Assembly: GCA_024276605.1 (NCBI GenBank)
Contig: JAJRWX010000050.1
Coordinates: forward strand, 5,695-69,694
Length of the DNA: 64,000 nt
Reading direction: 5' to 3'
DNA from: Planctomycetota bacterium
Lineage (GTDB): Bacteria; Planctomycetota; Phycisphaerae; UBA1845
The position numbers were made by a program, and so were the translations under genes. Under the pieces are notes generated by a model. That model searched no databases and had not been told where the DNA came from. It was given only the letters and a program-made list of their open reading frames with translations. Below, one piece after another: positions 2,988 through 19,160 of this stretch. The number at the start of each line of letters is the position of its first letter. Position 1 is the stretch's first letter.

Positions 2988-3512
2988 TTACAACGAGGCC
3001 ATGTAAGCGACTAAATCGACAAGCTCCTGGTCTGAAAAATTAAATTTCCCACCTGGGTGGGGATCGCCACCTCGCAATACCGCGTCGGTTTCTTGTGTAG
3101 AATCTCCAATAATCGATGGCGCCTCGAGTGCGCAGCCGCCGGTCCCGTCAGCGCAGTGGCAGGCGCCGCAGTTGTTGGCCGTATAAATATCCTGCCCGGC
3201 TTGGACATCACCGACTAGGCTATCTAAATCGCCTCCGTCCCCGCCGTCACTATCAGGTGAACCACCGTCATTATCCGCATCATCGACATTGTCAACTTCG
3301 TCATCAACTTGGTTTTCGACTTCCCCACTGCCGGCTATTGCATTCGCAATGTCGGTCACAAAAGAATCAACCGCCGTTCGACCCGCCGCTGAAGCTAGCT
3401 GGAATAAAACTTCCTGGTAATTCGTTCCACATCCCACTAGAAATAGAAAACCAAACGGAAGGCATAACATCGTTTCGCGTATACGTTTTGAATTCGTAGA
3501 TAGGCTCTTCAT
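2988..3512 (-). CDS. Monohaem class-I c-type cytochrome lipoprotein with an acidic low-complexity linker
   Basis: Single CGACH haem motif and lipobox FLVGCG. The C-terminus (ELVDLVAYMASL) is typical of small cytochromes c. Start is uncertain: ATG at 3512, or TTG at 3542 overlapping the upstream stop. Confidence 0.7.
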   Translation of the reverse strand: MKSLSTNSKRIRETMLCLPFGFLFLVGCGTNYQEVLFQLASAAGRTAVDSFVTDIANAIAGSGEVENQVDDEVDNVDDADNDGGSPDSDGGDGGDLDSLVGDVQAGQDIYTANNCGACHCADGTGGCALEAPSIIGDSTQETDAVLRGGDPHPGGKFNFSDQELVDLVAYMASL

Positions 3513-3538
3513 CAACCATTTTCTCCACACATATGATG

Positions 3539-4111
3539 TCAATCGTCGCCGGATAAAAGTTTTCGCAGTAATACACCTTCACCAAAATGAGGATCGTGGC
3601 AGCGAGTACAGTTTTCCACTTGGTCGCCGCTATGTGCCTCTTCACTCAAATCTTCCGGCTCATCATGACATTCCACGCACGTTTCAAAGACGGTAAGTTT
3701 AAGTAGTGTGGGGTGAATGCTACGGTGCATCTCGTGGCATGTTACGCATTCGCCTGCGATAACCGGCGCATGGCCAACTTCCTTTGAAAAATACTTCGCG
3801 TGGCAATCTCGACAGGCCTCGAGCAAGGCGTCGTCTTCACGCGGCTTCATCTGATTTTCCTGAGAATGGCAGCGCAAACATTGATGCATGCGGAATGGCG
3901 GGTGGATGGATAGGTAATCACTGACCGCAACAGTCATACCGTGGGGGGGCATGGCGACAGGTATACCATCGATAGCACCGACCGGCTGTTGCTCGTCCGG
4001 GATTTCGAAGAACCAATGAGCCAGCTTATCGCGGGTATCGGTTGAACAACCCCACAAGACAAGCATGCCCACCGCACAGGTCCACGCAACCTTGCGCATA
4101 GCTGATTCCAC
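3539..4111 (-). CDS. Pentahaem c-type cytochrome lipoprotein (cytochrome c3/c7-like)
   Basis: Five CxxCH motifs (CLRCH, CRDCH, CVTCH, CVECH, CTRCH). Signal peptide with lipobox LWGCS. Confidence 0.8.
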
Positions 4112-4358
4112 CTTTTTCTTGTCGCAGTGCGTCTGCCACGCCTTGGCACCAGTCGCTACAGTACACTTTCGTCATCATAATACAAGAGTCTTCAGTCTCG
4201 GCATTCTCTGATCCGAGAAAAAATATTTACTGATCCATGTCCGACTCCTTCGCCGACGGTAAGAAAAATGCTTTTTTTTCTTGCGACCTTGGATGCAATC
4301 GTCTATAGAACTACCGGCTTAGCTAGGCAAAGACTGTGGAAGCAATGAGAGACGTGCG

Positions 4359-6413
4359 ATGAACGGCGCGACCATCACACGAGTACCACCCCTGTTACTT
4401 ATCGCAGTTTTCGCGTTAACAGGGTCTCCGGCAGATGCTTTAGCCGAGGAAGGCAAGACCAAGCCACAAGCAACCAGCGGTTTTCTTACGCTCGATTATG
4501 GCGATGTCTATCTCGAGCTGGAAACCGAATATGCCTATACCGACATTCGGTCCCGCAGCCAACGTTTTCCCTTCGACCGCAAGCAAACGAACCGTGAATG
4601 GCGTTTCGAGGAGCGATTCGGCTTAACGCTTGGCGGCACGGTGATTGACGCTAAATTTCTGACCTATCGCGCTGACGTTAATTTCGGCCTAGTTCAGGAT
4701 CGATTTAAGTAAAGCACGAATGTTGATCACCAATCGGAAATCGATCGAGGCTACCTGCTCGAATTTGATGCCCGAGTGAATATTTTGCCCGGCGGCATAT
4801 TTTCCGGGTCAGTCTACGGCCTACGCCGCGACGATCGTATCAATCGCCGTTTCCAAACCACCTTAACCGAGCGCCGTACGAGTTTTGGGACCAGTTGGGT
4901 CTTTGCACACGATACCATGCCTATGGAACTAACCTATGATTTTACCCGCACCAGCCGCCGTGGGAATCGTGATCGTCGAGATGATGAAGAGTTCACTGAT
5001 AACGCACTGCGCTATAACGTGGATTGGCGCATTAACGAGCATCAAATTCTAAAATTTTCCTATGAACACGTGGAAAGCGAGCAACGCTATCAAGGAACCA
5101 GCCTGCGCTTTGAGACCACGCGAGACTTGATGATTACGGATCACGAATTGGCCTTCGGTGAGCAGTATCAGCACGCGCTACGCACCCGATTTCGCTGGCA
5201 AGAGGAAAGCGGCGACTTCGCGCGAGATTTATTCGAGATAGGCCCGCAACTGACGCTGTCGCATTCCGATACGTTTCAAACGATCTATAAATACCAATTT
5301 AACCGAGAACGATACGCCGGGCTGGACGTCGAAACCCAGCGATTGGACTTCCAAGCCGTGCATCAACTGTATAGTAATTTAACGACGACTTTTGATGCCT
5401 TTGCGCTGTATGAAGATATAGAAAATGACATTAACACGACACAATATGGCGCTTCGGTCGACTGGCAATACAATCGCAAGAATCGTTTCGGTCGATTTCG
5501 CGCGAATCTAGCCCTTGCGTATGACACGGAAGAAGTGGAAAGTGATGAGGGGCAACGGTTGGTGCTCGACGAGTCAGGTACTTTTCGTGACCCCATCCCC
5601 ATCACGCTGCGAAACCGCAACGTTGATGCAAGCAGTGTGATTGTCACCGATACGGGCAATCGACGTGTTTTTTCAGCCGGCATTGACTACATCGTTTTTC
5701 GACAGGATAACGTCACGCGCATCTCGCGTATACGAACCGGCCTAATCGCCGACGGCGATACGGTCTTGGTTGATTATCTGTTCAACACCCCCGCACGTGG
5801 GCAACTTGATACGGTCCGTGTGGACTTCAGCTTGGAGCAAAGATTCACCAATGGGTTAACCCCGTATTACCGCCTATCCTATCGCAATCAGGAAGATGAT
5901 GTGACGACGGGCTTCGGGCGTAGAGCCGATCGTACCGATCACCATCGCTTGGGGGTGAAATACGAAAAACAGAAATATACCTTGGATGTGGAACTCGAAA
6001 TTTTTGACGATACCATCGAGCCTTATGACGCGTTTCATATCAACGGCCTGTATCATGTCCTGCAATCTACGGATCGCACCATAGACCTATCAAGTCTATT
6101 CTCCAGGTTGTTGTTTGAAGGCGGATTTGACAATCGCAACGTGACTTTGGTTGATGTGCAGCTTGATCACCAGCGTAGAATCAGCAACACCGTATCGCTT
6201 ATGCAGCGGCTCGTCTATCGCTATGAAAGAGATTCCAGCCGGGGCATCACCCACGCCTGGGATGTATCTGCCGGGTTGGACTTTGTCGTCGGTGAGTTGT
6301 CGGGCGAACTCGTATTAGAGTACGATCGCTTGGGCTTGCCCGAATCACAGGAAGACGACTACGGGGTATTTTTCAGAGTGCGAAGAGAGTTTCCTGATGC
6401 TTTGGTGCGCTAA
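4359..6413 (+). pseudogene. Putative outer-membrane beta-barrel (porin-like, ~684 codons) split by an in-frame TAA at 4710-4712 (or a read-through gene)
   Basis: ORFs 4359-4712 and 4776-6413 share one frame, with a 21-codon stop-free linker between them. There is a signal peptide (LTGSPADALA). The sequence is rich in alternating Y/R/D/F/T residues and has no hydrophobic helices. An aromatic-rich C-terminus (GVFFRVRREF) sits close to the end. Confidence 0.5.
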
Positions 6414-6420
6414 CCAATCT

Positions 6421-7443
6421 ATGGCTACGCGGCTTTTTTGGTGCCTTTTAGTTGGCACCATAGCCAGCGGTTGTGCGCGCCCTGAAGGCACCTTATTCCC
6501 CGCACTCCAATCACCCCGCGTTTGGCCCGCGCCACCCCAGCAGTCGCGCATCGCTTATATTGGAGCCATATCCGACAGCAACGATTTACATGCTTCACAG
6601 AGTGGATGGGAAATGTTCCAAGCCGGCCTGCGCGGACCGCTACCACCCATTCGCTTTTCCGGCCCGCACGCCTTGGCGATGGGGCCTGATGGCTGGCTTG
6701 CAGTAGCAGATACATCAGCCGCAGCCGTCCACCTAATTAATATTAACACGCGCGATCATCGTATCATCGCGGGATGGCATGATGAGCGATTCGCTTCGCC
6801 GGTTGGCGTAACCTGGGTCAACCATAGACTGTTTGTAACTGATGCCCAACGGCATGAAGTCATTGAAATGGACACGACCGGCACCGTACATCGTCATTTC
6901 GGTACCGAAGATTTGCAGCGCCCCGTCGGCATCACCTTCGCCCACGCCAATCAACGCTTATATGTGGTTGACGGCGATGCACACCGAATAGCTGTGTTTA
7001 ACATGGAAGGCAAGTTGGAAAAATTCGTCGGTCAGCGTGGCACGGCACCTGGGGAGTTTAATTACCCTTCACATATCACCTCAACGGCTGATAAGCTCCT
7101 CATAGCTGACAGCGGAAACTTCCGTGTGCAGTTAATCGATTTAGATGGAAACGGCCTGCGCGTGTTCGGACAAAAAGGCGACGGTGCGGGAGATTTTTCC
7201 CTGCCCAAGGGTGTAGCCGTAGATAGCGACGGGCATATCTATGTGGTCGATGCCCATTTTGAAAACGTACAGATATTTAACCAGCAGGGTCAATTGTTAC
7301 TTTCATGGGGACAGGAAGGTAGCGGTATTGGTGCATTTATCTTGCCAGCTGGGATCGCGATCGATAGCCTAGACCGTATATGGATCGCCGATGCAGGCAA
7401 CCGCCGTATACAGGTGTTTCAATATATGAAGGCAAAATCATGA
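6421..7443 (+). CDS. NHL-repeat six-blade beta-propeller lipoprotein
   Basis: Lipobox IASGCA. Six repeats of the NHL pattern, e.g. PKGVAVDSDGHIYVVDAHFENVQIFN and PAGIAIDSLDRIWIADAGNRRIQVFQ. The gene starts 7 nt after the barrel stop. Confidence 0.8.
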   Translation: MATRLFWCLLVGTIASGCARPEGTLFPALQSPRVWPAPPQQSRIAYIGAISDSNDLHASQSGWEMFQAGLRGPLPPIRFSGPHALAMGPDGWLAVADTSAAAVHLININTRDHRIIAGWHDERFASPVGVTWVNHRLFVTDAQRHEVIEMDTTGTVHRHFGTEDLQRPVGITFAHANQRLYVVDGDAHRIAVFNMEGKLEKFVGQRGTAPGEFNYPSHITSTADKLLIADSGNFRVQLIDLDGNGLRVFGQKGDGAGDFSLPKGVAVDSDGHIYVVDAHFENVQIFNQQGQLLLSWGQEGSGIGAFILPAGIAIDSLDRIWIADAGNRRIQVFQYMKAKS

Positions 7444-9236
7444 CACGACAGGTTTCAAAACTATGCGGCATGGTGATGCTCGGCTTATTGGCTACCCTAT
7501 CGCAGGCCGACGAGTCCGTTGTAAACTCCTTGCATGACTTATCCGTGCGCGGACCGGGACCAATTAGGGCTATCCACGAAAACGAAATTTGTATTTTCTG
7601 CCATACACCGCATAACGGTGCCCCGCAAACACCACTATGGAATCGTGAAAATCCACGAACGCATTACCGCATCTACCGCAGTTCGACAACCGACGCCCGT
7701 ATCGATCAGCCGTCCGGACCATCCAAGATGTGCCTTAGTTGCCATGACGGATCGATGGCCCTGGGCAATGTGCTCTCCCGGCCCCAAACACATCCCATCG
7801 TTATGACCGCCCGCACCATTCCTCCGGGGACAGCCGACCTGAGTAACGATCTGTCCGACGATCATCCGATTGGCTTTCGTTACGACCGCGCATTATCAAA
7901 TGCCGATCCACAGATTCGGGCACCGGAACTCATCAGCAGCAAGTTGCCGCTTGGCACGCACGATGAAATGCACTGCACGACGTGTCACGATCCACACAAC
8001 AATCAGCTCGGTGATTTTTTACGCATCTCGGATCAAATGTCTGTCATGTGCATCACCTGTCACGACCTTCAAGGCTGGCCCCACGCCTCACATGCTACCA
8101 GCGGAAAACGTACCTCCGGACGGACCGTAGATCCGGTCGAGCGACTAAAATACGCCACTGTTGCCGACAACGGCTGCATCAATTGCCACAAAATTCATTC
8201 CGCCAATGAGCGAGAGAGATTGCTTCGTTTTCGCCGCGAAGAGGATGGTTGTCTGAACTGCCATAGCGGTACGATTGCCAATTTCAACATAGCCTCCGAG
8301 ATTCGTAAACGTTCCAGCCATGATCCTACGAGACGCACAGGTGTGCATGACCCTACGGAAAATACGTTGACCATGCGCCGTCATAGCGAATGCACCGATT
8401 GCCACAATCCACACGCCGCAGCCCCCAACCCCATTGGCCTGGTGCGGGGCACGCTCGGACCGCTCGTCAAAGGGCCTAATCTGCGCGTATCCGGTATCTC
8501 CATCAGCGGGCGGGAAGTCGATCACATCAGTTATAGTTATGAGATGTGCCTGAAGTGTCACGCTGACGGCGTAGCCAGACCACGATTGGTCACGTCACGA
8601 CAAGTTAGCCAGACAAACACACGACTCGAATTCCAAACGTCCAATCCATCCTTCCATCCTATCGCCGGACCACGACGAAACGCTGACGTGGTGAGTTTGC
8701 TATCACCTCTACGCGTGGGTAGTGTCATCACTTGCATCGATTGTCATAATAGTGACACGGCAAGATCCTTTGGCGGGTCTGGACCTAACGGACCGCACGG
8801 ATCTATCTATGAACCGCTGTTGGTACGCAACTACAACACAGACGATTTTACATCCGAAAGTGCACAGGCATACGCACTCTGTTATGGCTGTCACAATCGA
8901 GATAGCATTCTTGGCGATGACAGCTTCTCCCGACACCGCCGTCACATCGTCGATATACGAACGCCGTGCAGCGCCTGCCACGATGCCCACGGTATTTACC
9001 GAGGCCAGGGCAACAGCGTCAATCACGGCAGCTTGATTAACTTTGATTTATCCATCGTGCAGCCGGCCGATTCGCCGGCAGGAAGACGCATCGCCTACGA
9101 AGACACCGGACGACTATCGGGAAACTGCACGCTGACTTGTCATGGTTTTACGCATGTGACCATGCCCTATTCCAACGCCGGGCCGAGGAAATCCGCTTTG
9201 AGACCCGGTAAATTGTCACGAGGAGGCAGGCGATGA
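7440..9236 (+). CDS. Multihaem c-type cytochrome, 11 CxxCH plus 1 CX3CH (doubled-CXXCH / Geobacter-type family)
   Basis: ATGA overlap with the NHL gene stop (7440-7443). Signal peptide MTRQVSKLCGMVMLGLLATLSQA. Motifs are CIFCH, CLSCH, CTTCH, CITCH, CINCH, CLNCH, CTDCH, CLKCH, CIDCH, CYGCH, CSACH and CTLTCH. Confidence 0.85.
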   Translation: MTRQVSKLCGMVMLGLLATLSQADESVVNSLHDLSVRGPGPIRAIHENEICIFCHTPHNGAPQTPLWNRENPRTHYRIYRSSTTDARIDQPSGPSKMCLSCHDGSMALGNVLSRPQTHPIVMTARTIPPGTADLSNDLSDDHPIGFRYDRALSNADPQIRAPELISSKLPLGTHDEMHCTTCHDPHNNQLGDFLRISDQMSVMCITCHDLQGWPHASHATSGKRTSGRTVDPVERLKYATVADNGCINCHKIHSANERERLLRFRREEDGCLNCHSGTIANFNIASEIRKRSSHDPTRRTGVHDPTENTLTMRRHSECTDCHNPHAAAPNPIGLVRGTLGPLVKGPNLRVSGISISGREVDHISYSYEMCLKCHADGVARPRLVTSRQVSQTNTRLEFQTSNPSFHPIAGPRRNADVVSLLSPLRVGSVITCIDCHNSDTARSFGGSGPNGPHGSIYEPLLVRNYNTDDFTSESAQAYALCYGCHNRDSILGDDSFSRHRRHIVDIRTPCSACHDAHGIYRGQGNSVNHGSLINFDLSIVQPADSPAGRRIAYEDTGRLSGNCTLTCHGFTHVTMPYSNAGPRKSALRPGKLSRGGRR

Positions 9237-9817
9237 TCGGCGCAAAATTTCTTCTGATTAGTGTAGCCGCTGTTTGCTGCGCGATCACAGGACTCGCTTC
9301 TTCCGGCATCGAAGGGTCCAAACATGATTTCAGCGGTCAAACCGGCTCGGATGTCGATAAGTGTACGGCTTGCCACATACCGAAAAAAGATGACGCCCCA
9401 AAGGCTGCCCCACTATGGAATCAAAGAGCAGACCTTAAGAGAAGATTCAACGGCCAAGACAAACGGGTCAGCAGACCGGGAGACGGCACACGCATCTGTC
9501 TGCAATGTCACGACGGTACGATTGCCAAACCCGTCGCAGGTGGCGTCAAAACGGAACGATTTGTATACACGAAACACCCACGATTATTCACCGCTGGACA
9601 TGGCCGAAGTGACCACCCCGTGGGTGTCCTCTATCCGACCTTTAGCGATGATTTTCACCCTATCGCCACGGTGTTGTCCAAAGGGACGGTCCTATTACCT
9701 CATGGCCGGGTCGAATGCACCTCCTGCCACGACCCGCATAACCAAACTGATGCCCCGTTCATGCTCGTCCGAAGCAACGCCCGCAGCGCGCTATGTCTCA
9801 CATGCCACAAGAAGTAG
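9233..9817 (+). CDS. Tetrahaem c-type cytochrome (doubled-CXXCH type)
   Basis: ATGA overlap with the upstream stop, and AGGAGG 7 nt upstream. Signal peptide present. Motifs CTACH, CLQCH, CTSCH, CLTCH. SKHDF...C..CH.P resembles the N-terminus of the 7440 gene product. Confidence 0.8.
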   Translation: MIGAKFLLISVAAVCCAITGLASSGIEGSKHDFSGQTGSDVDKCTACHIPKKDDAPKAAPLWNQRADLKRRFNGQDKRVSRPGDGTRICLQCHDGTIAKPVAGGVKTERFVYTKHPRLFTAGHGRSDHPVGVLYPTFSDDFHPIATVLSKGTVLLPHGRVECTSCHDPHNQTDAPFMLVRSNARSALCLTCHKK

Positions 9818-9908
9818 TCATGAATGCTGCGTACTTTGGTTCCGCGCATAGACGCTTACAGCATCCTTCTTTTTTGCGTATGGCTTTTTTGAAGCCATCT
9901 TCCGGGAA

Positions 9909-11015
9909 ATGATGAGTATTGACCGCTACACAATAAAAGAGCTTGCTCTAACACGGCGTATACTCGTTTTACTGTATGTGACAACGTACTGTATGTTTTC
10001 GATGTGTGGGGGCTGTATCACTCACTCCCCCAATAAGGAACTGGTGTACTTCCCCGCCCCGCCGGCGGAACCGCATGTAGTGCATTTGAAATCGTTTAAT
10101 CGTCTTCACGATTTAGTCTCACCAAAGCTATCCTGGGTTGATCATATTCGTGGTGGGTTTGCCAGCCCCTTTGTCGCCACACCAGCCGGTATCGCCTATC
10201 ACAATCCACTTCTATATATCTGTGATACAGGCCAAGGCTATGTGCATCGTTGGAATCTACTAACGGGGCAAGCAACCCGCATTGGTGATACCGGCAATGT
10301 CACACTAGGGACACCCGTCGCCGTAGCGGTGGACGATAACCAGGATGTCTATGTGGCGGATACCAGCCGAGGCGAGGTCGTCGTCTTTGATCAAACCGGC
10401 GACATGATACATCAACTCAAACCCAAACAAGGCGAATCGATGAAGCCCGTAGCACTAGCCGTCCAAGCGGGAAAAGTGTATGTAGCCGACATCGCCCAGC
10501 ATCGCATCCTCGTATTCTCAGCGGCATCAGGCTCGTTAATCACCAGTTTCGGTGGCCCAGGCCATGCGCTCGGCGCGTTCTATTTCCCCATGGGACTAGC
10601 CACCGACCAGCATGGCCGACTATGGGTAGCCGACTCGATGAATGGCCGTGTGCAACAATTCGATCATGCCTTCAAGCCATTATCCTCTATCGGTAGTCTG
10701 GGCAATCGCTACGGTGACATGGGCAGACCTCGACACCTTGATGTCGGTCCGGACGGTGTCATCTTCGTGGCTGATACTGAATTCGCACACGTACACATGT
10801 TCGATCAAGATGGCCGATTGCTCATGCTCTTAGGAGGCCCCGAAGATCAACCTGCCGGCACACCCATGCCATTAGGCATTGCTATAGCCCGGGATGTACC
10901 TCCTCTCATTCGTGAACTGGCTCCCGCAACATTTGATCCAAAATATTACCTCTTCATCTCAAACACCGTGGGTTCACAACGCCTGAGCATCTTTGCCGTC
11001 GGAGTGAAGAAATAG
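9909..11015 (+). CDS. NHL-repeat six-blade beta-propeller (probable lipoprotein)
   Basis: Six NHL-like blades, e.g. PVAVAVDDNQDVYVADTSRGEVVVFD and FYFPMGLATDQHGRLWVADSMNGRVQQFD. The N-terminus is hydrophobic with FSMCGGC. Confidence 0.8.
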   Translation: MMSIDRYTIKELALTRRILVLLYVTTYCMFSMCGGCITHSPNKELVYFPAPPAEPHVVHLKSFNRLHDLVSPKLSWVDHIRGGFASPFVATPAGIAYHNPLLYICDTGQGYVHRWNLLTGQATRIGDTGNVTLGTPVAVAVDDNQDVYVADTSRGEVVVFDQTGDMIHQLKPKQGESMKPVALAVQAGKVYVADIAQHRILVFSAASGSLITSFGGPGHALGAFYFPMGLATDQHGRLWVADSMNGRVQQFDHAFKPLSSIGSLGNRYGDMGRPRHLDVGPDGVIFVADTEFAHVHMFDQDGRLLMLLGGPEDQPAGTPMPLGIAIARDVPPLIRELAPATFDPKYYLFISNTVGSQRLSIFAVGVKK

Positions 11016-11460
11016 AAAGAATTGAATGCTTGGTAGAGCGACAGTGTATTCACATTATCTCAATAATGGGAAATAGGCGTATTAGGCATGTCATAGATAT
11101 GTCCTTTTTGGGGGTACACAATTTCAAATCCTTTTCTCACCTTTGAGTCGGTTCAAGTCGTAACAGCTATTGTTACGATACTCCTACGTGGCAACGGCTA
11201 ATATTTTTTGTTAATCTACTACATCATCCAGATAATCACAAAGCTATACGGATGATAAAAAGCAATATAATGTGATTATGCAATGGCCTGCGGCACTTAT
11301 TGCATTTTCGCATATTGCATTGCGGCGTATTCACGAAGAATGTAATTACCATGCGAGTCTCATCGCACATGGGCAATAGCTATTCAATCGTAGATGATCT
11401 CAAGACAGTAACCTACCAGGATGATGAGTTACCTCAAAGGTTTATAGGAGGCTGAAAACC

Positions 11461-12807
11461 ATGAACAAAAAATTGAAATGTATTTCATCCGTTGGCCTAT
11501 TTGCAGTGGTTGTTACGATGTCCAGCGTTTTCATGGTACTTATCGTTGGCTGCCCTACAGTCAGCGTGGGCGGAGGCACAACCAACGGTAATAGCGGTGT
11601 CACAGGCAAATTCGTCGGCGCCGAAACATGCCTAGCCTGTCACGCAGATGATCACGCGAATTGGTCCAACACAGGGCATGCCGGCGCATTAGAAACCCTG
11701 GAAGCTATCGGCCAAGGCGAGAATGCTAGTTGCTTGGGCTGTCATACAGTAGGCTTTGGTGAAGATGGCGGCTTCGTAGACCGTGCGACCACCAACGCCC
11801 TTGTTGGGGTACAATGCGAAAACTGTCACGGCAGCGGTCGCGACCATGTAGATAATGCCATCGCAGCACGTGATGAAGGGGCAACCTTTGACGAAAGCCT
11901 GAAGCCGGTGGTTAATCTGTCTGCGCAAATGTGTGGCACCTGTCATACCGATGCCCATCATCCAACCTTCGACGAGTGGAAACTATCCAAACATTCGACG
12001 GCCCTTGAAGGTCTTCGATCCAATCCGTTTGCCAACGACAGTTGCCTGGAATGTCACTCCCAGGACTTCCGTTACCAAACAGAACTGGCCACCGAAACGG
12101 GTGATCTGAGTAACATCCCGACGTTAGATTCCGCCCTGTTTTCTATCGAATGTGTCTCTTGCCATGCCCCGCATGGCGGCGTGGCACAGAACCATCAGTT
12201 ACGTATGCCCGTGGCTGATTTGTGCGGCGAATGTCATACGCAAGAAGAGGCAACGCTAGGTAGTACGCCTCATCATCCGCAAATTGAGATGGTAACTGGT
12301 ACTGGAGGCTTCGCAGCCGACGGAACAAGCTTGGTTCAAGCCGGTCCGCATTCGAGCTTGTTTGCCAGTGATGGCGAGGCTTGCGCACAATGTCATGTGG
12401 TTACGCACGATGTGGACGAACCCAATGATGGAAATCCCAATATCACAGGACACACATTCAACCCCTTCGATGAAGATATCACGACAATATCCCCTGAGCA
12501 TCAGGCTGAACAGTTCGGTGGGTGTCTGATTTGTCACACGGCTGAAGGTGCTCAGGAACGTTTTGATCGAGTACAAACGGACATTGCAGCCAAACTCGAT
12601 GCACTAAGCCCATTCTTTGATGCAGATAACCCGTCCTTTATTGATAAGAACACACTTACAATCGAGGATCAACTGCGTTACGAGACTGCCCAGTTCAACT
12701 TTAAGTATGTCGAGGCGGATGGTAGTCAAGGCGTGCATAATGCTTCATATGCCCGGGCTTTGTTAGATATTGCAGAGACTATTTTGAATGACTTAGCCGC
12801 AACATAA
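11461..12807 (+). CDS. Nonahaem c-type cytochrome lipoprotein
   Basis: AGGAGG sits 9 nt upstream of the start. Lipobox LIVGCP. Nine CxxCH motifs (CLACH, CLGCH, CENCH, CGTCH, CLECH, CVSCH, CGECH, CAQCH, CLICH). Confidence 0.85.
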   Translation: MNKKLKCISSVGLFAVVVTMSSVFMVLIVGCPTVSVGGGTTNGNSGVTGKFVGAETCLACHADDHANWSNTGHAGALETLEAIGQGENASCLGCHTVGFGEDGGFVDRATTNALVGVQCENCHGSGRDHVDNAIAARDEGATFDESLKPVVNLSAQMCGTCHTDAHHPTFDEWKLSKHSTALEGLRSNPFANDSCLECHSQDFRYQTELATETGDLSNIPTLDSALFSIECVSCHAPHGGVAQNHQLRMPVADLCGECHTQEEATLGSTPHHPQIEMVTGTGGFAADGTSLVQAGPHSSLFASDGEACAQCHVVTHDVDEPNDGNPNITGHTFNPFDEDITTISPEHQAEQFGGCLICHTAEGAQERFDRVQTDIAAKLDALSPFFDADNPSFIDKNTLTIEDQLRYETAQFNFKYVEADGSQGVHNASYARALLDIAETILNDLAAT

Positions 12808-13127
12808 CCAAATGCCGGTCAAGCGAATACACGCATCGGTCTGATCGGTCTGGTAGCTTGAAATGACTACCGGTATGACCATTTTATTCCCTTGACTCTA
12901 GCAAAAAAAATGTACGCTCGCGCAAGAGTTGCGCGTTAACTGTGTAGCCTGTGATTGTTAGTCAATTTTTTATATTCTGGCATGGATCATGCGAGGCAGT
13001 TGTTATTGTTGAGAAATGTGAGGGTTGACCGACTTTGTAACAATAGAAACTACTTGCCCCCTGTCATAACGCTAGGCGGGGGTTGTTGGAATTACAGTAG
13101 TAGAACAACGCATGAGGAGATCAGATT

Positions 13128-14756
13128 ATGCTCAGAAAACAAACCCCGAGTTGGAAGCCGCTCATGGCCGTTGGTGTGACGGTCTCGTTATTTAGTTTGT
13201 CACTTTTGATGGTAGGTTGTCCAGGGGGCACGATCCCTCCACCTGGCAACCCCTGTGACAATGTGGACTGCCAGGATGGTCAAACCTGTATCGACGGCAC
13301 ATGCGTAGCTGATGATACGGGCAATGCCCCAACCTTACAGGGGTTAGATGCGAACAAGGCCATGATCCTACCGTTTGCGGTACAAGTCGCATACAACGAT
13401 GACACTATGTTTTTTCACATGAGCTGGGAAGGCGACCGCGGGGATACGCACGATTATTTCCGATACACCAACGGCGCTTGGCAGCGTGAAGGCGGTGTCC
13501 GACGAGATGCCCAAGCAACGATCGATAACGATCCTCTGCGTGGTTCTACCAGTATAAACTCGACAATTTACGAATCCCGCGTCACATTTATGTTGGACGA
13601 CCCCACCGGTCCTAATGCCGTCGCAGGCTTCGCCCAGTATGGCTGCATGTTAACTTGCCATGACAATAGCCGAGCTATGCCACAATGGATTCATGACGAC
13701 GGTGAGGTTCATAAGTATCTACCGGATGATAAGCCCGGTCGCTTAGACCTATGGCACCACCGCCTGGGCCGGGCTAACCCCATTGGCCTATCTGACGATC
13801 AGTGGGTAGGTCTACGACAAGGTAAGGGTGATGATGGCGTCACCGACGAAGATGGCGGTTCCCGCCAGGGCGATGCAGGCACCGGACCATACGCCACGGG
13901 AAAGACCGATGGCGATGGCAATCCGCAGTGGGTATTCGACCCCAGTACGACCGGTGGCCTTTATGCCTTTGCCTTTGGGGACTTATTTACCAGCCCGATT
14001 CGTTATTTTGCGGATGACACCGCACTCAATATAGGCCCGAATGCACCGAACCCCATCGGTATCGATTACGCCGAAGCGATAGCCATGGGCTATGTGCCAA
14101 GTGAAGGCGATACCGTGCCTCGTCGTCGACTTCGACAAACAGAAGGTAGCCGGGGAGACATCACAGCAGCCGGTACGACTTTCACACCATCAGCCAACGA
14201 TCCGCTCTTTGGCCGATGGAATTCGAATATTCAGCGTGCCATGGATACTGGCAATGATGATGACACTGCATTGGTTGACGGTAACATTTACAACATCGCT
14301 TTCGCTGTCCATGTAGGCATGGTTACCGTGCGGGATCATTATGTATCCTTCGCCTACACCCTTTCGCTAGGCGGCGGTGATGCCGACATTCAAGCTGTGA
14401 AGATTTCAGGTAGTGGCAGCGCTACGCTTCCAGACTTCTCAGATACCGCGCAGTTCCCGGTAACTAACTTGAATACCTTCTTGCCAGGCATTACCAGCTA
14501 TGAATTTCTCAATGGTGATAACGCCGGGTTGGAATACATTGATCCTGCTACGGGCACAGCCGTTGACCAGAATCACGCAGGCGCTACCGGTTTAATGACG
14601 GGAGGCTTACGTTGCCAATCGTGCCATGCCGTTAGCGATGCTGACGTAGCATCCTTTACTGCATCGGGTACTGGTGCGTTCCCCGCTGGATCTATGGAAT
14701 CGCTGGCACCACAACGCGGCGGGGTGACCTCGCCAACGCCGCTTCCCCCGCCATAG
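13128..14756 (+). CDS. Lipoprotein with a small 4-Cys module, an EB_dh/DOMON-like putative haem-binding domain and one C-terminal CxxCH
   Basis: Lipobox LMVGCP, then PCDNVDCQDGQTCIDGTCV. MFFHMSWEGD and LDLWHHRLGRANPIGLSDDQW resemble ethylbenzene-dehydrogenase-type haem domains; this rests on my memory of the family and is not verified. Also CMLTCH (CX3CH) and CQSCH. Confidence 0.5.
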   Translation: MLRKQTPSWKPLMAVGVTVSLFSLSLLMVGCPGGTIPPPGNPCDNVDCQDGQTCIDGTCVADDTGNAPTLQGLDANKAMILPFAVQVAYNDDTMFFHMSWEGDRGDTHDYFRYTNGAWQREGGVRRDAQATIDNDPLRGSTSINSTIYESRVTFMLDDPTGPNAVAGFAQYGCMLTCHDNSRAMPQWIHDDGEVHKYLPDDKPGRLDLWHHRLGRANPIGLSDDQWVGLRQGKGDDGVTDEDGGSRQGDAGTGPYATGKTDGDGNPQWVFDPSTTGGLYAFAFGDLFTSPIRYFADDTALNIGPNAPNPIGIDYAEAIAMGYVPSEGDTVPRRRLRQTEGSRGDITAAGTTFTPSANDPLFGRWNSNIQRAMDTGNDDDTALVDGNIYNIAFAVHVGMVTVRDHYVSFAYTLSLGGGDADIQAVKISGSGSATLPDFSDTAQFPVTNLNTFLPGITSYEFLNGDNAGLEYIDPATGTAVDQNHAGATGLMTGGLRCQSCHAVSDADVASFTASGTGAFPAGSMESLAPQRGGVTSPTPLPPP

Positions 14757-14823
14757 TTTTTCGCATAACAGCCTGTTTCATATAACGATATGATCGTGGC
14801 TGTGACATTTTGCATTCATCATT

Positions 14824-14860
14824 GACCCCGGCTCAGTAACCGTGCCGGGGTCTTTTTATT
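14824..14860 (+). terminator. Rho-independent terminator
   Basis: GACCCCGGC (14824-14832) pairs with GCCGGGGTC (14844-14852) and is followed by TTTTTATT. Confidence 0.7.
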
Positions 14861-15319
14861 GCATATCCAGGCGCTAATCATCAACCCTGTACGCATTGTT
14901 TAGTAAATCGACTTGCTACCGCTCAACGGCATCGGCATCCGAACGTAAGTATCTACCAATACGCTACTTACGTCATTACCAATCCTGGGCATACTTAGCC
15001 ACAAGCTCGGCCCGTATCCCGCTCAATCGATCATAGCCCACACGCTCCGCTCGAACAGGGTGAGCAACAATCCATGTGGTACCGCAAGCTAAGGCCGAAC
15101 AAATAAAATTAACTTGGAGACGAGGCGTAATTGTTACGACTCCGCCTACTTTCTCTTGACTAATATGATTTTTTCTCAATTATGGAATGACTTGCATGAG
15201 ACAGGTTGGCAATTACTAACTTTGAGAACCTATAGATCACAGGATTAAAAATGCCCTGGCGCGGGGCGTTGGTGTAGCACCTATTTCGATTCTAGTAAAA
15301 AGTATTAGGAGATCAGTCA

Positions 15320-16291
15320 ATGTTAAGAAAACGGATGATAAGTTGGCAACCGCTCATAGCCATCGGGGTAACAATGTTTATCGTAGGATGTCCTACCATC
15401 ACGACACCGCCGGACGATCCATGTGCCGGTGTGGACTGCACGGACGGCGAAACTTGCGTTGACGGTGTATGTGTCGCAGCACCAGTCGATACTACCGACC
15501 CTGTAGAGTTCACCAATGCAGACGGTATCAAAGGAGGCGCGCTGTACGACAAGTTTTACGACACACCGGATTTTGATAAAAATACTGATGACGCTGCGCA
15601 GATTATGGCATTTGGTGATTTCTTCCGCTGCAAACAGTGTCATGCTTGGGATCACCTCGGCAACATGGCCTCCTATATAGACCGTGCGCCAAAAACCACG
15701 CGGCCTAATGTGACTGCGATCAACCTGGCTGAACATGCCATGGACGAGTCTGCACAAGAATTGTTCGACGCCATAAAAACGGGAAATGGCGGACGACGAT
15801 CTGTGTCCGCTGATTTGTCCACTTACGATCCCGCTGATCCAACAACAACAGCTGTGGGCGATCAGATGCCCAATTTCGGCGAAATTCTCACGGACGCCCA
15901 GATATGGGATCTCGTCAAATATCTCAAAGAGGACTTTTTAGATACAACCCAGCTGTACGACATCGACATCACAGGAACGTATCCGGATGGAACACGGACA
16001 TTTTCAAATATCGGTAAAGACGGCGATCCGGTAAATGGGGATGCCCTATACGCAGCAAAATGTGCTGGATGTCACGGTGCAGACGGCCTTCTGATTCTCT
16101 TTGACAACGGTGAATTATCCATTGGCTCTTTCGCCCGTACTAAACCATATGAACTCTCTCACAAATCCAAGTTTGGTCAGCCCGGTTCAGCAATGGGGCC
16201 ACAAGGCATTAATACAATCGAGGATATGAAAGACCTATTCGCTGCGCTAGTTGATTCAACGAACTTTCCTGATCCCGCACCGGCCCCATAG
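15320..16291 (+). CDS. Dihaem c-type cytochrome lipoprotein with the same N-terminal leader and 4-Cys module as the 13128 gene product
   Basis: Lipobox FIVGCP, then PCAGVDCTDGETCVDGVCV. Motifs CKQCH and CAGCH. Confidence 0.75.
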   Translation: MLRKRMISWQPLIAIGVTMFIVGCPTITTPPDDPCAGVDCTDGETCVDGVCVAAPVDTTDPVEFTNADGIKGGALYDKFYDTPDFDKNTDDAAQIMAFGDFFRCKQCHAWDHLGNMASYIDRAPKTTRPNVTAINLAEHAMDESAQELFDAIKTGNGGRRSVSADLSTYDPADPTTTAVGDQMPNFGEILTDAQIWDLVKYLKEDFLDTTQLYDIDITGTYPDGTRTFSNIGKDGDPVNGDALYAAKCAGCHGADGLLILFDNGELSIGSFARTKPYELSHKSKFGQPGSAMGPQGINTIEDMKDLFAALVDSTNFPDPAPAP

Positions 16292-16318
16292 GCCTGTCCT
16301 TAATCTTTAGTCATTTTG

Positions 16319-16353
16319 AAACCCGCGATCACTCGACGATCGCGGGTTTTTTA
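16319..16353 (+). terminator. Rho-independent terminator
   Basis: AAACCCGCGATC (16319-16330) pairs with GATCGCGGGTTT (16338-16349), extended by a T-run. Confidence 0.7.
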
Positions 16354-16704
16354 ACGCGCATTGACTGGCGTGGATGCTGTATTCATATTGCGCATGGTTA
16401 TACCTGTAGCGTACTGGATCCCCAGCCTGTTTGATGGAATTGCCGAAGTCGCAACGTGAAGGCATAAACATGCCAACGACGCTCCTTCCACACTCATCGC
16501 ATTTGACAAAAGCGTACAACACGCGGTAACACAAATGTAGCTCATGCCTCGATAGCGTTCACCAACCGCAGTGCAGCCGCATCTGGGCTTTTCTTCACGT
16601 ACTGACATCACGGACTTCTCAATACCGGCGGTTGGTGTTTCGTGAATTTGCTGATCGAAATTCACCGTTCGGCACGGAAATTGCGTGTAAATTACCGTAG
16701 AGCT

Positions 16705-16800
16705 AGCTCTATTAAACTGTAGTGTCCGGTAGCAGATTTTGGGGGAGGTTATCGATGTTTGACCGCTACACGCTATAGGAATGCTAGTGATGGTTTCATG
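16705..16800 (+). promoter_or_regulatory. Conserved leader-like element, copy 1, with GGAGG plus mini-ORF MFDRYTL (16755-16778)
   Basis: A 30-nt block (25 identical positions) and a 28-nt block (24 identical) are shared with 21149-21251. GGAGG lies 6 nt before the ATG. The element sits 40-130 nt upstream of the membrane cytochrome gene. Confidence 0.35.
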
Positions 16801-16841
16801 ATGTCATGCGTCTTCTGCCTATAAAGTTGGAATAATTGAAA

Positions 16842-19160
16842 ATGTCAGTTCATAGGATGCGTAAGTTATTGACCGCTATCGGGGCTATCCTGGCCATCGT
16901 GTCACTGATGACAATCATAACCTCCACCATTTTGAGCATATTGACTCAATCTGAGCCTATTGGCCTAGTCCTGGCCGAAGTTTTTACGCCGGCCATTTTG
17001 CTTCTCATCGGATTAGCCGGCATGCTCGGCAGCGCGCTCCTAGCTCGCAGACAAGGCTTAACTGTTCGTTTGTGGATGTTAGGTCTTGATGGGCTGCGCT
17101 CGCGCCACCTTGCCCAAGCAGGCTATACGATGCCAAGTGAGTTGTTGCAGGCGAACACCGAGCAGGATAACCCGTCGGCTTCAGATAATACGCCGACGAA
17201 ACCACACAACAAAATAAAGGATGATATGCCGTTCGACCAGCGCAAGCCATATCAACCAAAGTTTCCTCCAATGTGGAACAATTTCATTTCCTACACGGGA
17301 TTTTTTGTTTCACTAATGAGCATGCTGCTCATGCTGACATTTGGTTTGTTCAGCATGATATCTACCCACTCGAATCCCTATGTAGATATCATTGGCTACC
17401 TCGTACTACCGAGCGTATTGATCGCGGGTCTTGCATTTATACTTTGCGGTATTTTCATCAAGAGTTGGCGACTTAAGCGTACAGACCCTACCCAGAAATT
17501 AATCTTTCGCTTTCCACGCGTGGATTTCAATGATCCCATCCAGCGCAGGGCAGCGAAAGTTGTATTGGCCAGCTGTTTCATCTTGTTACCGGTGGTTGGT
17601 GTCAGTTCTTATCACGGGTATCACTACACCGATTCTGCCGACTTTTGCGCTAAAGCTTGCCATGCGGCCATGGAACCGCAAGCCACGGCTTATGAGTATT
17701 CCGCACATGCTCGTGTATCCTGCGCGGAATGTCATATCGGTTCCGGCGCAAGTTGGTTTGTGAAGTCAAAACTTTCCGGCACGCGGCAAGTCTTAGCCAT
17801 GTGGCAAGATTCGTTTTCCCGACCCATACCGCCGGCCATTACCGAACTTCGTCCAGCGCGAGAGACATGCGAAAAGTGTCATTGGCCAAAGAAATTTTTT
17901 GGTCAACAACTACGTCGCATTGTGCATTATAGATCTGACGAAGATAACACACGGCTTGAATTCGACATGCTACTCAAGACCGGCGGAGGCGATGAATCGA
18001 TGGGACGAGCTGAAGGCATCCACATGCATATGGCACTGGAAGGGAAAATTGAATATGTAGCCAACGACGACAAATTGCAGGATATTTCGTGGGTTCGTTA
18101 TGTGGATCGTACCGGCGTGGCATCAATCTACCGAAACGATGGAAATCCAAGCTCCGACCCCAGGCCAAAAGGTGTCATTCGCCGGCTTGATTGTATGGAT
18201 TGTCACAATCGCCCCGCACATAAATTTAAATCGCCCAAAGCTGCGATCGACATTTTTCTCGAAGTAGGTCGCATCGACACCACCTTACCTTTTATCAAGC
18301 GAGAAGCACTTGCTGCTTTAGTCGAACCATATCCTGATCGCGAAACGGCTGAGCGTGAAATAGGACGCCGTATGTTAGATTTCTATAAGAACCAATACCC
18401 CAATGTTTGGGATACTAGAAAAGCATCCGTCAAACAAGCGATCGATATGACACGACTAGCCTACCGTAAGAATTTTTTCCCGGATATGAAAGTCGATTGG
18501 CGCACCTATCCCGACAACATCGGCCATAAGATTTCCCCCGGCTGTTTCCGTTGTCATGATGGCTTGCACATCAACCAGAGAGGCGAACGACTGAGTCACG
18601 AGTGCAGCACGTGTCACACTTTCCTTAATCCGATCGACGAAAATGGGAGGAACTTGACCCAAGAAGGAGAATTTCAACACCCCTACGAGCTTGAGGGTTC
18701 ACACATATCTCTACGTTGCGACAAGTGTCATACCGGAGGCATTACACCGTCTACATCATGCCAAGGGTGTCACACAACGGTCGTCAACTTTCGTGCCGGT
18801 ACGCTGGCGGAATTTGAACTGGCCGCTCTCGAACCGGATGCCATGGTTGATGTTGATTGCGAGTCCTGCCATGATTTATCCGAACCCACTTCGATCGAAT
18901 CGATTGACGTGATGTGCATGGATTGTCATGACGGCGAAGAAGGCTTCGAAGGTATGTTAGCCTCCTGGGCGAAGGAGGCGGAAACATTACTATCGCATGC
19001 TCAAGAGAAAACCAAGGGCGATACGGTCAAACAAAACATCTTGCACGCGCTGCGCAAAGCAGGCCCGATGCATAATATGAAAGCCACACGATCCATCGTA
19101 CGAGAACTATTGTCATCAGAAAACGCGGCAACCAATCAAACAACAACAACAACAGATTGA
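16842..19160 (+). CDS. Membrane-anchored multihaem cytochrome (about 5 TM helices; 9 CxxCH plus 1 CX3CH), NapC/NirT-like candidate quinol dehydrogenase
   Basis: Hydrophobic helices occupy the first ~260 aa. Motifs follow in order: CAKACH, CAECH, CEKCH, CMDCH, CFRCH, CSTCH, CDKCH, CQGCH, CESCH, CMDCH. Start is ATG 16842 or TTG 16836. Confidence 0.8.
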   Translation: MSVHRMRKLLTAIGAILAIVSLMTIITSTILSILTQSEPIGLVLAEVFTPAILLLIGLAGMLGSALLARRQGLTVRLWMLGLDGLRSRHLAQAGYTMPSELLQANTEQDNPSASDNTPTKPHNKIKDDMPFDQRKPYQPKFPPMWNNFISYTGFFVSLMSMLLMLTFGLFSMISTHSNPYVDIIGYLVLPSVLIAGLAFILCGIFIKSWRLKRTDPTQKLIFRFPRVDFNDPIQRRAAKVVLASCFILLPVVGVSSYHGYHYTDSADFCAKACHAAMEPQATAYEYSAHARVSCAECHIGSGASWFVKSKLSGTRQVLAMWQDSFSRPIPPAITELRPARETCEKCHWPKKFFGQQLRRIVHYRSDEDNTRLEFDMLLKTGGGDESMGRAEGIHMHMALEGKIEYVANDDKLQDISWVRYVDRTGVASIYRNDGNPSSDPRPKGVIRRLDCMDCHNRPAHKFKSPKAAIDIFLEVGRIDTTLPFIKREALAALVEPYPDRETAEREIGRRMLDFYKNQYPNVWDTRKASVKQAIDMTRLAYRKNFFPDMKVDWRTYPDNIGHKISPGCFRCHDGLHINQRGERLSHECSTCHTFLNPIDENGRNLTQEGEFQHPYELEGSHISLRCDKCHTGGITPSTSCQGCHTTVVNFRAGTLAEFELAALEPDAMVDVDCESCHDLSEPTSIESIDVMCMDCHDGEEGFEGMLASWAKEAETLLSHAQEKTKGDTVKQNILHALRKAGPMHNMKATRSIVRELLSSENAATNQTTTTTD

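Follow-up and report, generated by a model that had tools for sequence, protein, structure and literature searches.

A probable omcE-type cluster of multihaem cytochromes, NHL propellers and a large beta-barrel in a Planctomycetota genome

The window analysed here is a stretch of 64,000 nucleotides (nt) from a Planctomycetota bacterium (contig JAJRWX010000050.1), and a group of eleven open reading frames (ORFs), g1 to g11, is found between its positions 2988 and 19160 ( Table 1 ). We consider it reasonably probable that g2 to g7, together with g1, constitute an omcE-type cluster, i.e. a trans-envelope conduit with an extracellular OmcE-like part. This reading is carried by the fact that g6 and the N-terminal domain of g5 are homologous to the subunits of cytochrome filaments, by a predicted outer-membrane beta-barrel, by export signals and by the synteny of six genes. 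The initial annotation of the window had proposed an undescribed architecture, which did not hold: g2 to g7 correspond to the minimal omcE set of Petersen et al. (bioRxiv 10.1101/2025.10.22.684050), the same parts list occurs in the Uet system, and variants of the DFE clusters have already been reported. The locus represents no new architecture but a further member of the omcE-type family, in a phylum not so described before and with lineage-specific accessories.

According to Petersen et al., the smallest omcE clusters always consist of two multihaem cytochromes, two beta-propeller lipoproteins, OmcE and a large beta-barrel, the latter regarded as a putative secretion pore or anchor. OmcE homologs were reported there from five phyla, Planctomycetota not being among them; the operons held no OmcE-like initiator or tip candidate, and the export of the nanowires, their initiation and their wiring to the cell were described as an open question. 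All six part types of the omcE clusters of Geobacter sulfurreducens and Desulfuromonas soudanensis (filament structures 7TFS and 9YUQ) are present in the window: the multihaem cytochromes as g2 and g5, the propellers as g4 and g7, OmcE as g6 and the barrel as g3. Sequence homology to the solved subunits is seen in g6 and in the N-terminal domain of g5, and the other parts are matched by type. For these other parts the nearest test is the locus of Desulfuromonas sp. BM509 (L064), whose pentahaem, barrel, NHL and 11-haem proteins are matched by g2, g3, g4 and g5 of the window. The window differs from these clusters in its phylum, in the inverted pentahaem gene, and in the order of the genes (barrel, NHL, 12-haem, tetrahaem, NHL). 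It also differs in having no glycosylation gene block, an interrupted barrel gene, one distal His fewer in g6, and extra neighbours of OcwA-like, EB_dh, dihaem and ImcH-like type.

The OmcE filament subunits are matched better by the first 200 residues of the dodecahaem cytochrome g5 than by g6. Residues 9-208 of g5 (nt 7464-8063) constitute an OmcE-like tetrahaem domain, with expectation values (E) of 3.5e-27 to 7tfs_A and 1e-25 to 9yuq_N. A structure of g5 was modelled with AlphaFold2 (AF2) from 51 diverse homologs (predicted local distance difference test score, pLDDT, 84; predicted template modelling score, pTM, 0.80), and the only significant Foldseek match of this model in the Protein Data Bank (PDB) was 7TFS (E 4e-8, template modelling score, TM, 0.71 over the full OmcE length, 34% identity). 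All 12 haem sites of g5 are invariant or nearly so across the 51 homologs. The same is true of the eight OmcE haem ligands in the N-terminal domain, which retains all four distal His of OmcE. The pattern is general within the family, which has 5393 relatives among 50%-identity representatives: at all loci checked, G. sulfurreducens OmcE aligns at near full length to the N-terminal ~200 amino acids (aa) of the 11/12-haem protein, with E values between 1e-21 and 1e-35 in the 70 best matches, the Desulfuromonas sp. locus L064 included. The twelfth haem site of g5 is of the CX3CH type (CTLTCH, residues 563-568, nt 9126-9143) and is invariant in the 51 homologs; therefore the cytochromes named 'undecahaem' in the literature, where only CxxCH motifs are counted, are probably dodecahaems, judging by the sequences.

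The shorter OmcE-like protein, g6, aligns over its full length with D. soudanensis OmcE (9yuq_N, E 1.7e-13) and also matches G. sulfurreducens OmcE (7tfs_A, E 1.2e-11). The alignment includes the four CxxCH motifs, three of the four distal His (in the motifs KHD, DHP and CHDPH) and a C-terminal CH-x-K end common to both. We regard g6 as a candidate filament subunit and a divergent relative of OmcE. All tetrahaems of the window's clade, that of L033 excepted, have an additional His located five residues ahead of the DHP motif. A 175-aa ORF that overlaps g6 in another frame (9324-9851, + strand) is most likely spurious.

The distribution of the module was investigated by a scan with the alignment of the g5 family, with one genome per species, which gave 303 relatives. 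The best 80 loci were fetched and their ORFs were searched with the window proteins and with a barrel profile built on Phycisphaerae barrels; an intact 11/12-haem homolog was present in 75 of them, and the counts below refer to these 75. The best 80 loci span ~15 phyla. The hosts belong to Planctomycetota, Calditrichota, Ignavibacteria, Nitrospirota, Bacteroidota, Desulfobacterota (including the isolate Desulforhopalus sp. IMCC35007), Verrucomicrobiota, Kiritimatiellia, Acidobacteriota, Alpha-, Beta- and Gammaproteobacteria, Geobacteraceae, Desulfuromonas, Zixibacteria, Binatia and others, and the module is found both in iron reducers and in lineages that take up electrons or oxidise iron. In 70 loci the 11/12-haem gene is directly preceded by an NHL gene, an OmcE-like tetrahaem is found in 51 and a barrel, by the profile, in 49. 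All six parts were detected in 21 loci, a number that is too low, since contigs end prematurely and the barrel profile had been derived from a single phylum.

The usual arrangement is tetrahaem, NHL, pentahaem, barrel, NHL and 11-haem on a single strand. A circular permutation of it is seen in Ignavibacteria and Calditrichota. In the clade of the window, the pentahaem gene has the opposite orientation, and the genes for the tetrahaem and the second NHL protein have been relocated to a position after the 12-haem gene. In the complete Phycisphaerales genome CP070744.1 and on three long contigs, the divergent pentahaem, barrel, NHL, 12-haem and tetrahaem genes are kept together, with the monohaem gene in three of these four relatives and the second NHL gene also in three. 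Their outer neighbours differ: the EB_dh gene is present only in the closest relative, L002, and the g8 to g11 series in none. Therefore the 16-kb, eleven-gene unit of the initial annotation resolves into a seven-gene core, g1 to g7, that stays together in relatives, and lineage-specific neighbours, g8 to g11, that are absent or different in the sister genomes.

Several features of the related loci were noted in passing. CP070744.1 (Phycisphaerales bin37) has two paralogous modules, L001 with the order of the window type and L016 with the canonical order; in the latter the NHL gene between the barrel and the 11-haem gene is missing. A 13-haem cytochrome of ~480 aa, with no counterpart in the window, stands beside the module in many phyla (L016, L024, L026, L029, L031, L032, L041, L044, L048, L050, L055, L057, L060, L062, L063 and L065). 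Very large cytochromes (18-20 CxxCH in L025, L045 and L033) occur a few kb from the module and are paired with a further NHL propeller; their coordinates are 12478-14844 in L025, 16171-18528 in L045, 17213-19564 in L085 (783 aa) and from 13371 in L033, where the large cytochrome is fused to the propeller. These pairs may represent a second, related unit.

The product of g3 has no match in Pfam or NCBIfam. It has more than 238 homologs, all unnamed and ~685-690 aa long, nearly all from metagenome-assembled genomes (MAGs) of Phycisphaerae or Planctomycetota. The outer-membrane barrel that the initial annotation had predicted at this position was recovered in an AF2 model of P0002, an intact homolog 83% identical to g3: the model (mean pLDDT 88) is an all-beta barrel of ~30 long strands with a small insert near residues 409-467. 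Foldseek matched it solely to large outer-membrane barrels of the PDB (TonB-dependent receptors, LptD, FimD, SprA, MtrB), with TM scores of 0.34 or less and identities of 8-11%. MtrB (6r2q_B) was found at rank 46 (TM 0.34, 8% identity), no better than TonB-dependent receptors or LptD. Because these matches are generic and low-scoring, we describe g3 as a large outer-membrane barrel without a specific solved relative; going by the model, it is a putative secretion pore or anchor. An identity as an MtrB-type porin was ruled out by the lack of a family match and by the nonspecific Foldseek ranking.

The remaining core proteins are g2, g4, g7 and g1. The pentahaem g2 matches Paired_CXXCH_1 (E 1e-17), and its best PDB match is MtrA (6r2q_A, E 8e-10) over just 58 residues; its orthologs adjoin the barrel in 32 of the 75 loci. 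The two NHL propeller proteins seen in the initial annotation are borne out by Pfam NHL matches in g4 (E 3e-30) and g7 (E 1.5e-21). Lipoboxes are found on propeller and pentahaem orthologs and are mostly clear on the orthologs of g7, and the tetrahaem orthologs have a Sec signal. Finally, g1 matches the Pfam families Cytochrom_C and Cytochrome_CBB3; it has orthologs in L001, L002 and L004, and it adjoins the pentahaem gene solely in the window's own clade.

The eleven ORFs lie where the initial annotation had placed them, and its count of haem motifs, 42 CxxCH and three CX3CH, agrees with our motif count. Pfam matches of the Paired_CXXCH type are found in g2, g5, g6 and g8. The lipoboxes claimed in the initial annotation are likewise seen as lipobox-like N-termini in g1, g2, g4, g8, g9 and g10. 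Sec-type signal peptides were detected in g3, g5 (starting at Met21, nt 7440) and g6, the N-terminus of g7 being ambiguous. Tight coupling had been claimed for 4359-11015; the 7-nt gap (6414-6420, before the ATG at 6421) and the two ATGA overlaps (7440-7443 and 9233-9236) were confirmed, and the tightly coupled part is 4359-9817. g2 is transcribed divergently from g3. A scan for promoters and terminators gave counts not above those in shuffled sequence and was uninformative on operon structure. The flanks of the cluster are unrelated to it, with TrkA upstream and, downstream, CrcB and an extracytoplasmic function (ECF) sigma factor with its anti-sigma factor. A 402-aa ORF directly upstream (1529-2737, + strand) has no Pfam match and no obvious signal peptide. 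The nearest homologs of the window proteins are Phycisphaerae/Planctomycetota MAG proteins, in accordance with the planctomycete-like host that had been proposed from the sequence.

Table 1. Genes of the cluster in the window; haem motifs are given as CxxCH + CX3CH.
Gene	Position	Strand	Product and N-terminus	Haem motifs
g1	2988..3542	-	Monohaem class I cytochrome c, probable lipoprotein (LVGC)	1
g2	3539..4111	-	Pentahaem lipoprotein (LWGC|S), small multihaem cytochrome of the module	5
g3	4359..6413	+	Large outer-membrane beta-barrel, 684 codons, in-frame TAA; Sec signal peptide	
g4	6397..7443	+	NHL beta-propeller lipoprotein (IASGC); likely start ATG 6421	
g5	7440..9236 (ORF from 7380)	+	Dodecahaem cytochrome; Sec signal peptide	11 + 1
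g6	9233..9817	+	OmcE-family tetrahaem cytochrome, 194 aa; Sec signal peptide	4
g7	9909..11015	+	Second NHL beta-propeller protein; signal sequence with atypical lipobox	
g8	11461..12807	+	OcwA-family nonahaem lipoprotein (LIVGC)	9
g9	13128..14756	+	EB_dh/DOMON-like lipoprotein; Cys-rich N-terminal module, C-terminal CxxCH	1 + 1
g10	15320..16291	+	Dihaem class I cytochrome c lipoprotein	2
g11	16836..19160	+	Inner-membrane multihaem cytochrome; five hydrophobic segments, CX3CH, then CxxCH motifs	9 + 1

Among the accessory genes, g8 matches the nonahaem cytochrome OcwA (6i5b_A) across most of its length (E 2.3e-27), and it is also similar to cytochrome c554 (1bvb, E 2e-11) and, distantly, to hydroxylamine oxidoreductase. 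OcwA of Thermincola potens (6I5B) is a cell surface protein of a Gram-positive organism, whereas g8 is a lipoprotein of a diderm. L001, L002 and L005 have no counterpart of g8, and small c554-like tetrahaems adjoin the module in five other loci; g8 is a variable accessory outside the conserved core. The EB_dh-like lipoprotein of the initial annotation, g9, scores well above the Pfam cut-off for EB_dh (PF09459; 90.7 bits against 33.3, E 2e-25, residues 81-407), and no sequence relative of it was found in the PDB. An ortholog of g9 was found in one of 85 loci, L002, where it directly follows the core. The dihaem g10 has Pfam matches to Cytochrome_CBB3 and Cytochrom_C. A common N-terminal unit is found in g9 and g10 (13128-13320 and 15320-15480); it consists of a signal peptide, a lipobox and the Cys-rich stretch PCxxVDCxDGxTCxDGxCV, and it causes cross-matches between two otherwise unrelated proteins. 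To judge from the sequence comparisons, g9 and g10 are specific to the lineage of the window.

The membrane-anchored cytochrome with ten haem motifs that had been recognised at the end of the cluster is g11, whose hydrophobic segments extend to residue 261 and are followed by the CX3CH at 271. It matches Cytochrom_NNT of Pfam, i.e. the N-terminal region of NapC/NirT (E 2e-7, residues 240-327), and NrfH (2j7a_C, E 3e-7, residues 242-304) at the helix-haem junction. The published signature of ImcH (PMC6295460) consists of membrane helices, a CX3CH beside the last helix, five to nine subsequent CxxCH motifs and a NapC/NirT-like junction, and all of these are found in g11. The protein differs from ImcH (GSU3259) in having five hydrophobic segments instead of three and in being ~250 residues longer; the likeness is judged by the published signature, and g11 is best described as an ImcH-like, putative quinol oxidase. 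A homolog (E 3e-127) is encoded 5 kb from the module in the Verrucomicrobiia MAG L034. Other membrane complexes were seen beside the module: a Rieske/cytochrome b complex with a 9-haem cytochrome in L002 (1147-4301) and L004 (9871-13331), and a HydC-type cytochrome b with two multihaem cytochromes in L085 (11640-15040). A quinol-linked partner in the inner membrane is therefore a recurrent neighbour, the identity of which varies.

Several described systems have a similar composition. The uetA-J genes of 'Candidatus Tenderia electrophaga' and Gallionella, proposed for electron uptake, encode the tetrahaem UetA, the barrel UetC (28 strands predicted, larger than MtrB), the NHL proteins UetH/I and the undecahaem 'doubled CXXCH' protein UetJ with 11-12 motifs (bioRxiv 10.1101/2022.05.06.490989; PMC10734462). 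The tetrahaem, the large barrel, the two NHL proteins and the 11/12-haem cytochrome are shared with the window, the match being one of parts lists. The trihaem c7 proteins UetD/E/G, the cupredoxin UetF and the peptidyl-prolyl isomerase UetB have no counterpart among the eleven window proteins, and the window has a pentahaem lipoprotein instead. Three proteobacterial loci, L049, L058 and L059, have NHL, tetrahaem, two trihaems, a barrel-sized ORF, NHL and 11-haem in this order, and the barrel profile matches the barrel-sized ORF in L049 and L058 but not in L059; this looks like a compact Uet. Among the top 120 matches of a profile built on proteobacterial 11-haem proteins, none bore the name of Tenderia, Gallionella or Leptothrix. 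The Occ cluster of 'Candidatus Dechloromonas occultata' resembles the window in its parts list, which includes proteins with six NHL repeats and an undecahaem. In Desulfovibrio ferrophilus IS5, multihaem cytochromes are clustered with NHL beta-propellers (DFE_0448-0451 and DFE_0461-0465; PMC5815863), and DFE_449 has 12 haem sites by a CXnCH count, like g5, a likeness that is again one of parts list and literature. No apparent porin was found in this species (PMC9769857). A FeGenie-type survey has already reported 'DFE variants' in Phycisphaerae MAGs and in G. sulfurreducens. By analogy, the Uet, Occ and DFE clusters look like described relatives of the window module.

The likeness to MtrCAB (6R2Q) and to the Geobacter Pcc/Ext conduits is one of general logic, i.e. 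a multihaem cytochrome that passes through a large barrel, with lipoprotein cytochromes outside, and g2 carries a local, MtrA-like segment of paired CXXCH motifs. Unlike in those systems, the barrel of the cluster is no relative of MtrB by sequence or by a specific match of folds, and its NHL propellers and OmcE-like proteins have no counterpart there. Decahaems of the MtrA/DmsE and MtrC/OmcA types were not found in the cluster (TIGR03508/TIGR03507, 22-53 bits against cut-offs of 192-209). NHL proteins or propellers are not mentioned in He et al. 2017 (PCC3) or in the 2024 survey of outer-membrane multihaem cytochromes. A 2026 preprint on peat describes a 'porin-scaffold-cytochrome' system, which may or may not correspond to the present module.

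The barrel, the exported multihaem cytochromes and the inner-membrane, NapC/NirT-like cytochrome are in agreement with the machinery of extracellular electron-transfer type that the initial annotation had suggested. If the omcE-type reading is correct, the ImcH/NapC-like g11 would take electrons from quinol in the inner membrane, and these would pass on via g1, g10, the OcwA-like g8, perhaps the EB_dh protein g9, and the pentahaem lipoprotein g2. The dodecahaem g5 would lead the electrons across the outer membrane, either within the ~30-strand barrel g3 or next to it. The tetrahaem g6 could then be exported through g3 or mounted on it, and would form a filament or at least a surface cytochrome. 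The fact that g5 begins with a complete OmcE-like domain is the reason for proposing it as a base on which g6 docks, and the NHL propellers g4 and g7, whose lipoboxes are clear and atypical, respectively, might be assembly or docking factors. The direction of the electron flow could be that of reduction or that of uptake.

A number of observations weigh against this reading. To our knowledge, filaments have not been observed in any planctomycete. The fourth distal His of OmcE, in the CHxPH motif, is Lys in g6 (CHIPKK, 9362-9379) and Asn in the closest relative L002 (tetrahaem 14692-15384), while the sister lineages L001, L004, L005 and L033 retain it; g6 thus has three of the four distal His expected of an OmcE subunit, which makes polymerisation doubtful for the window's lineage. 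The g8 to g11 genes are tied to the core by proximity alone, with intergenic gaps of 320-563 nt across g7 to g11 and non-conserved neighbours. Mutants of D. ferrophilus deleted for the DFE cytochromes, which are probably related, showed no Fe(III) oxide phenotype (PMC9769857). Finally, the barrel gene has an in-frame TAA at 4710-4712 (codon 118), a codon that is Glu (GAA) in eight aligned homologs. Taken at face value, this sequence does not allow the export of a full barrel, and the public annotation (P0001) calls just the 545-aa C-terminal ORF, without a signal peptide. Selenocysteine at this position was ruled out, the codon being TAA and not TGA. A genuine nonsense codon would mean that the locus is decaying or inactive, with the outer-membrane step lost and the other proteins left as relics or as a periplasmic store of electrons. 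We regard this as unlikely: the stop is a single GAA-to-TAA change, there are no frameshifts, the downstream conservation is intact (83% identity to P0002), no other gene is damaged and no haem motif is missing, and an error in the MAG consensus or a strain variant is at least as likely.

Another explanation is a classical porin-cytochrome conduit without a filament, in which g5 would sit in the barrel like MtrA in MtrB and g6, g8 or both would be monomeric reductases or oxidases of the surface. This is essentially the model of the initial annotation and the one proposed for Uet, and it agrees with several of the above results, namely the local similarity of g2 to MtrA, the membership of g8 in the OcwA family of surface terminal reductases, the missing distal His of g6, and a barrel model with more strands than MtrB, as was predicted for UetC. 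OmcE itself was long regarded as a plain outer-surface cytochrome. Nevertheless, both solved members of the g6 family are filaments (7TFS and 9YUQ), the barrel has no specific similarity to MtrB, and a decahaem of the MtrC/OmcA type is missing from the module, all such matches being below the curated cut-offs; we therefore hold the conduit without a filament to be possible but rather doubtful. A periplasmic multihaem enzyme system of nitrogen or sulfur metabolism (hydroxylamine, nitrite or sulfite type), with no electron export, seems very improbable. The distant similarity of g8 to hydroxylamine oxidoreductase and cytochrome c554, the EB_dh domain of g9, which occurs in gamma subunits of molybdoenzymes, and weak matches to NrfB/NrfH, all below the cut-off, could be cited for it. 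However, the cluster includes no catalytic subunit, i.e. no molybdopterin protein and no NrfA-type CxxCK, and the enzyme matches in NCBIfam are all far below the cut-offs. Moreover, the partners in the core are a large outer-membrane barrel and OmcE homologs, and the hosts of the module differ widely in nitrogen and sulfur metabolism. An operon of this kind was rejected on the motif count and the NCBIfam scores. The findings that might have spoken against electron-transfer machinery were looked for as well: the barrel is predicted, export signals are present, and no nitrogen or sulfur enzyme operon is matched.

Within the omcE-type reading, a further proposal can be made, which we put forward tentatively and as rather unlikely at present. 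The 12-haem g5 family could be the missing base of OmcE filaments: its N-terminal unit would dock the first free subunit by the haem-His contact of the OmcE filament, the other eight haems would thread the barrel as far as the periplasm, and the propellers would be the assembly factors. If this were true, the six-gene module would be a widespread, self-contained device for anchoring and wiring nanowires, and cytochrome filaments would be expected in Phycisphaerae, Bacteroidota, Nitrospirota and others. The proposal may be a useful lead, or it may already be known to specialists.

The locus is ordinary for its family; what is noteworthy is how widely the family is distributed and that its 12-haem partner bears an OmcE-like domain. 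The omcE-type set reaches beyond the five phyla reported, to Planctomycetota, Ignavibacteria, Calditrichota, Bacteroidota, Acidobacteriota, Verrucomicrobiota and others, and the OmcE-like domain at the start of a large cytochrome is a concrete candidate for the filament base that can be addressed in tractable Geobacter or Desulfuromonas. The omcE cluster, Uet, Occ and DFE may be one family under four names, in which case the reading of FeGenie-type 'DFE variant' matches in environmental surveys should change. For the Phycisphaerae, which are usually seen as fermentative degraders of polysaccharides, the module provides a candidate route for respiration with extracellular acceptors.

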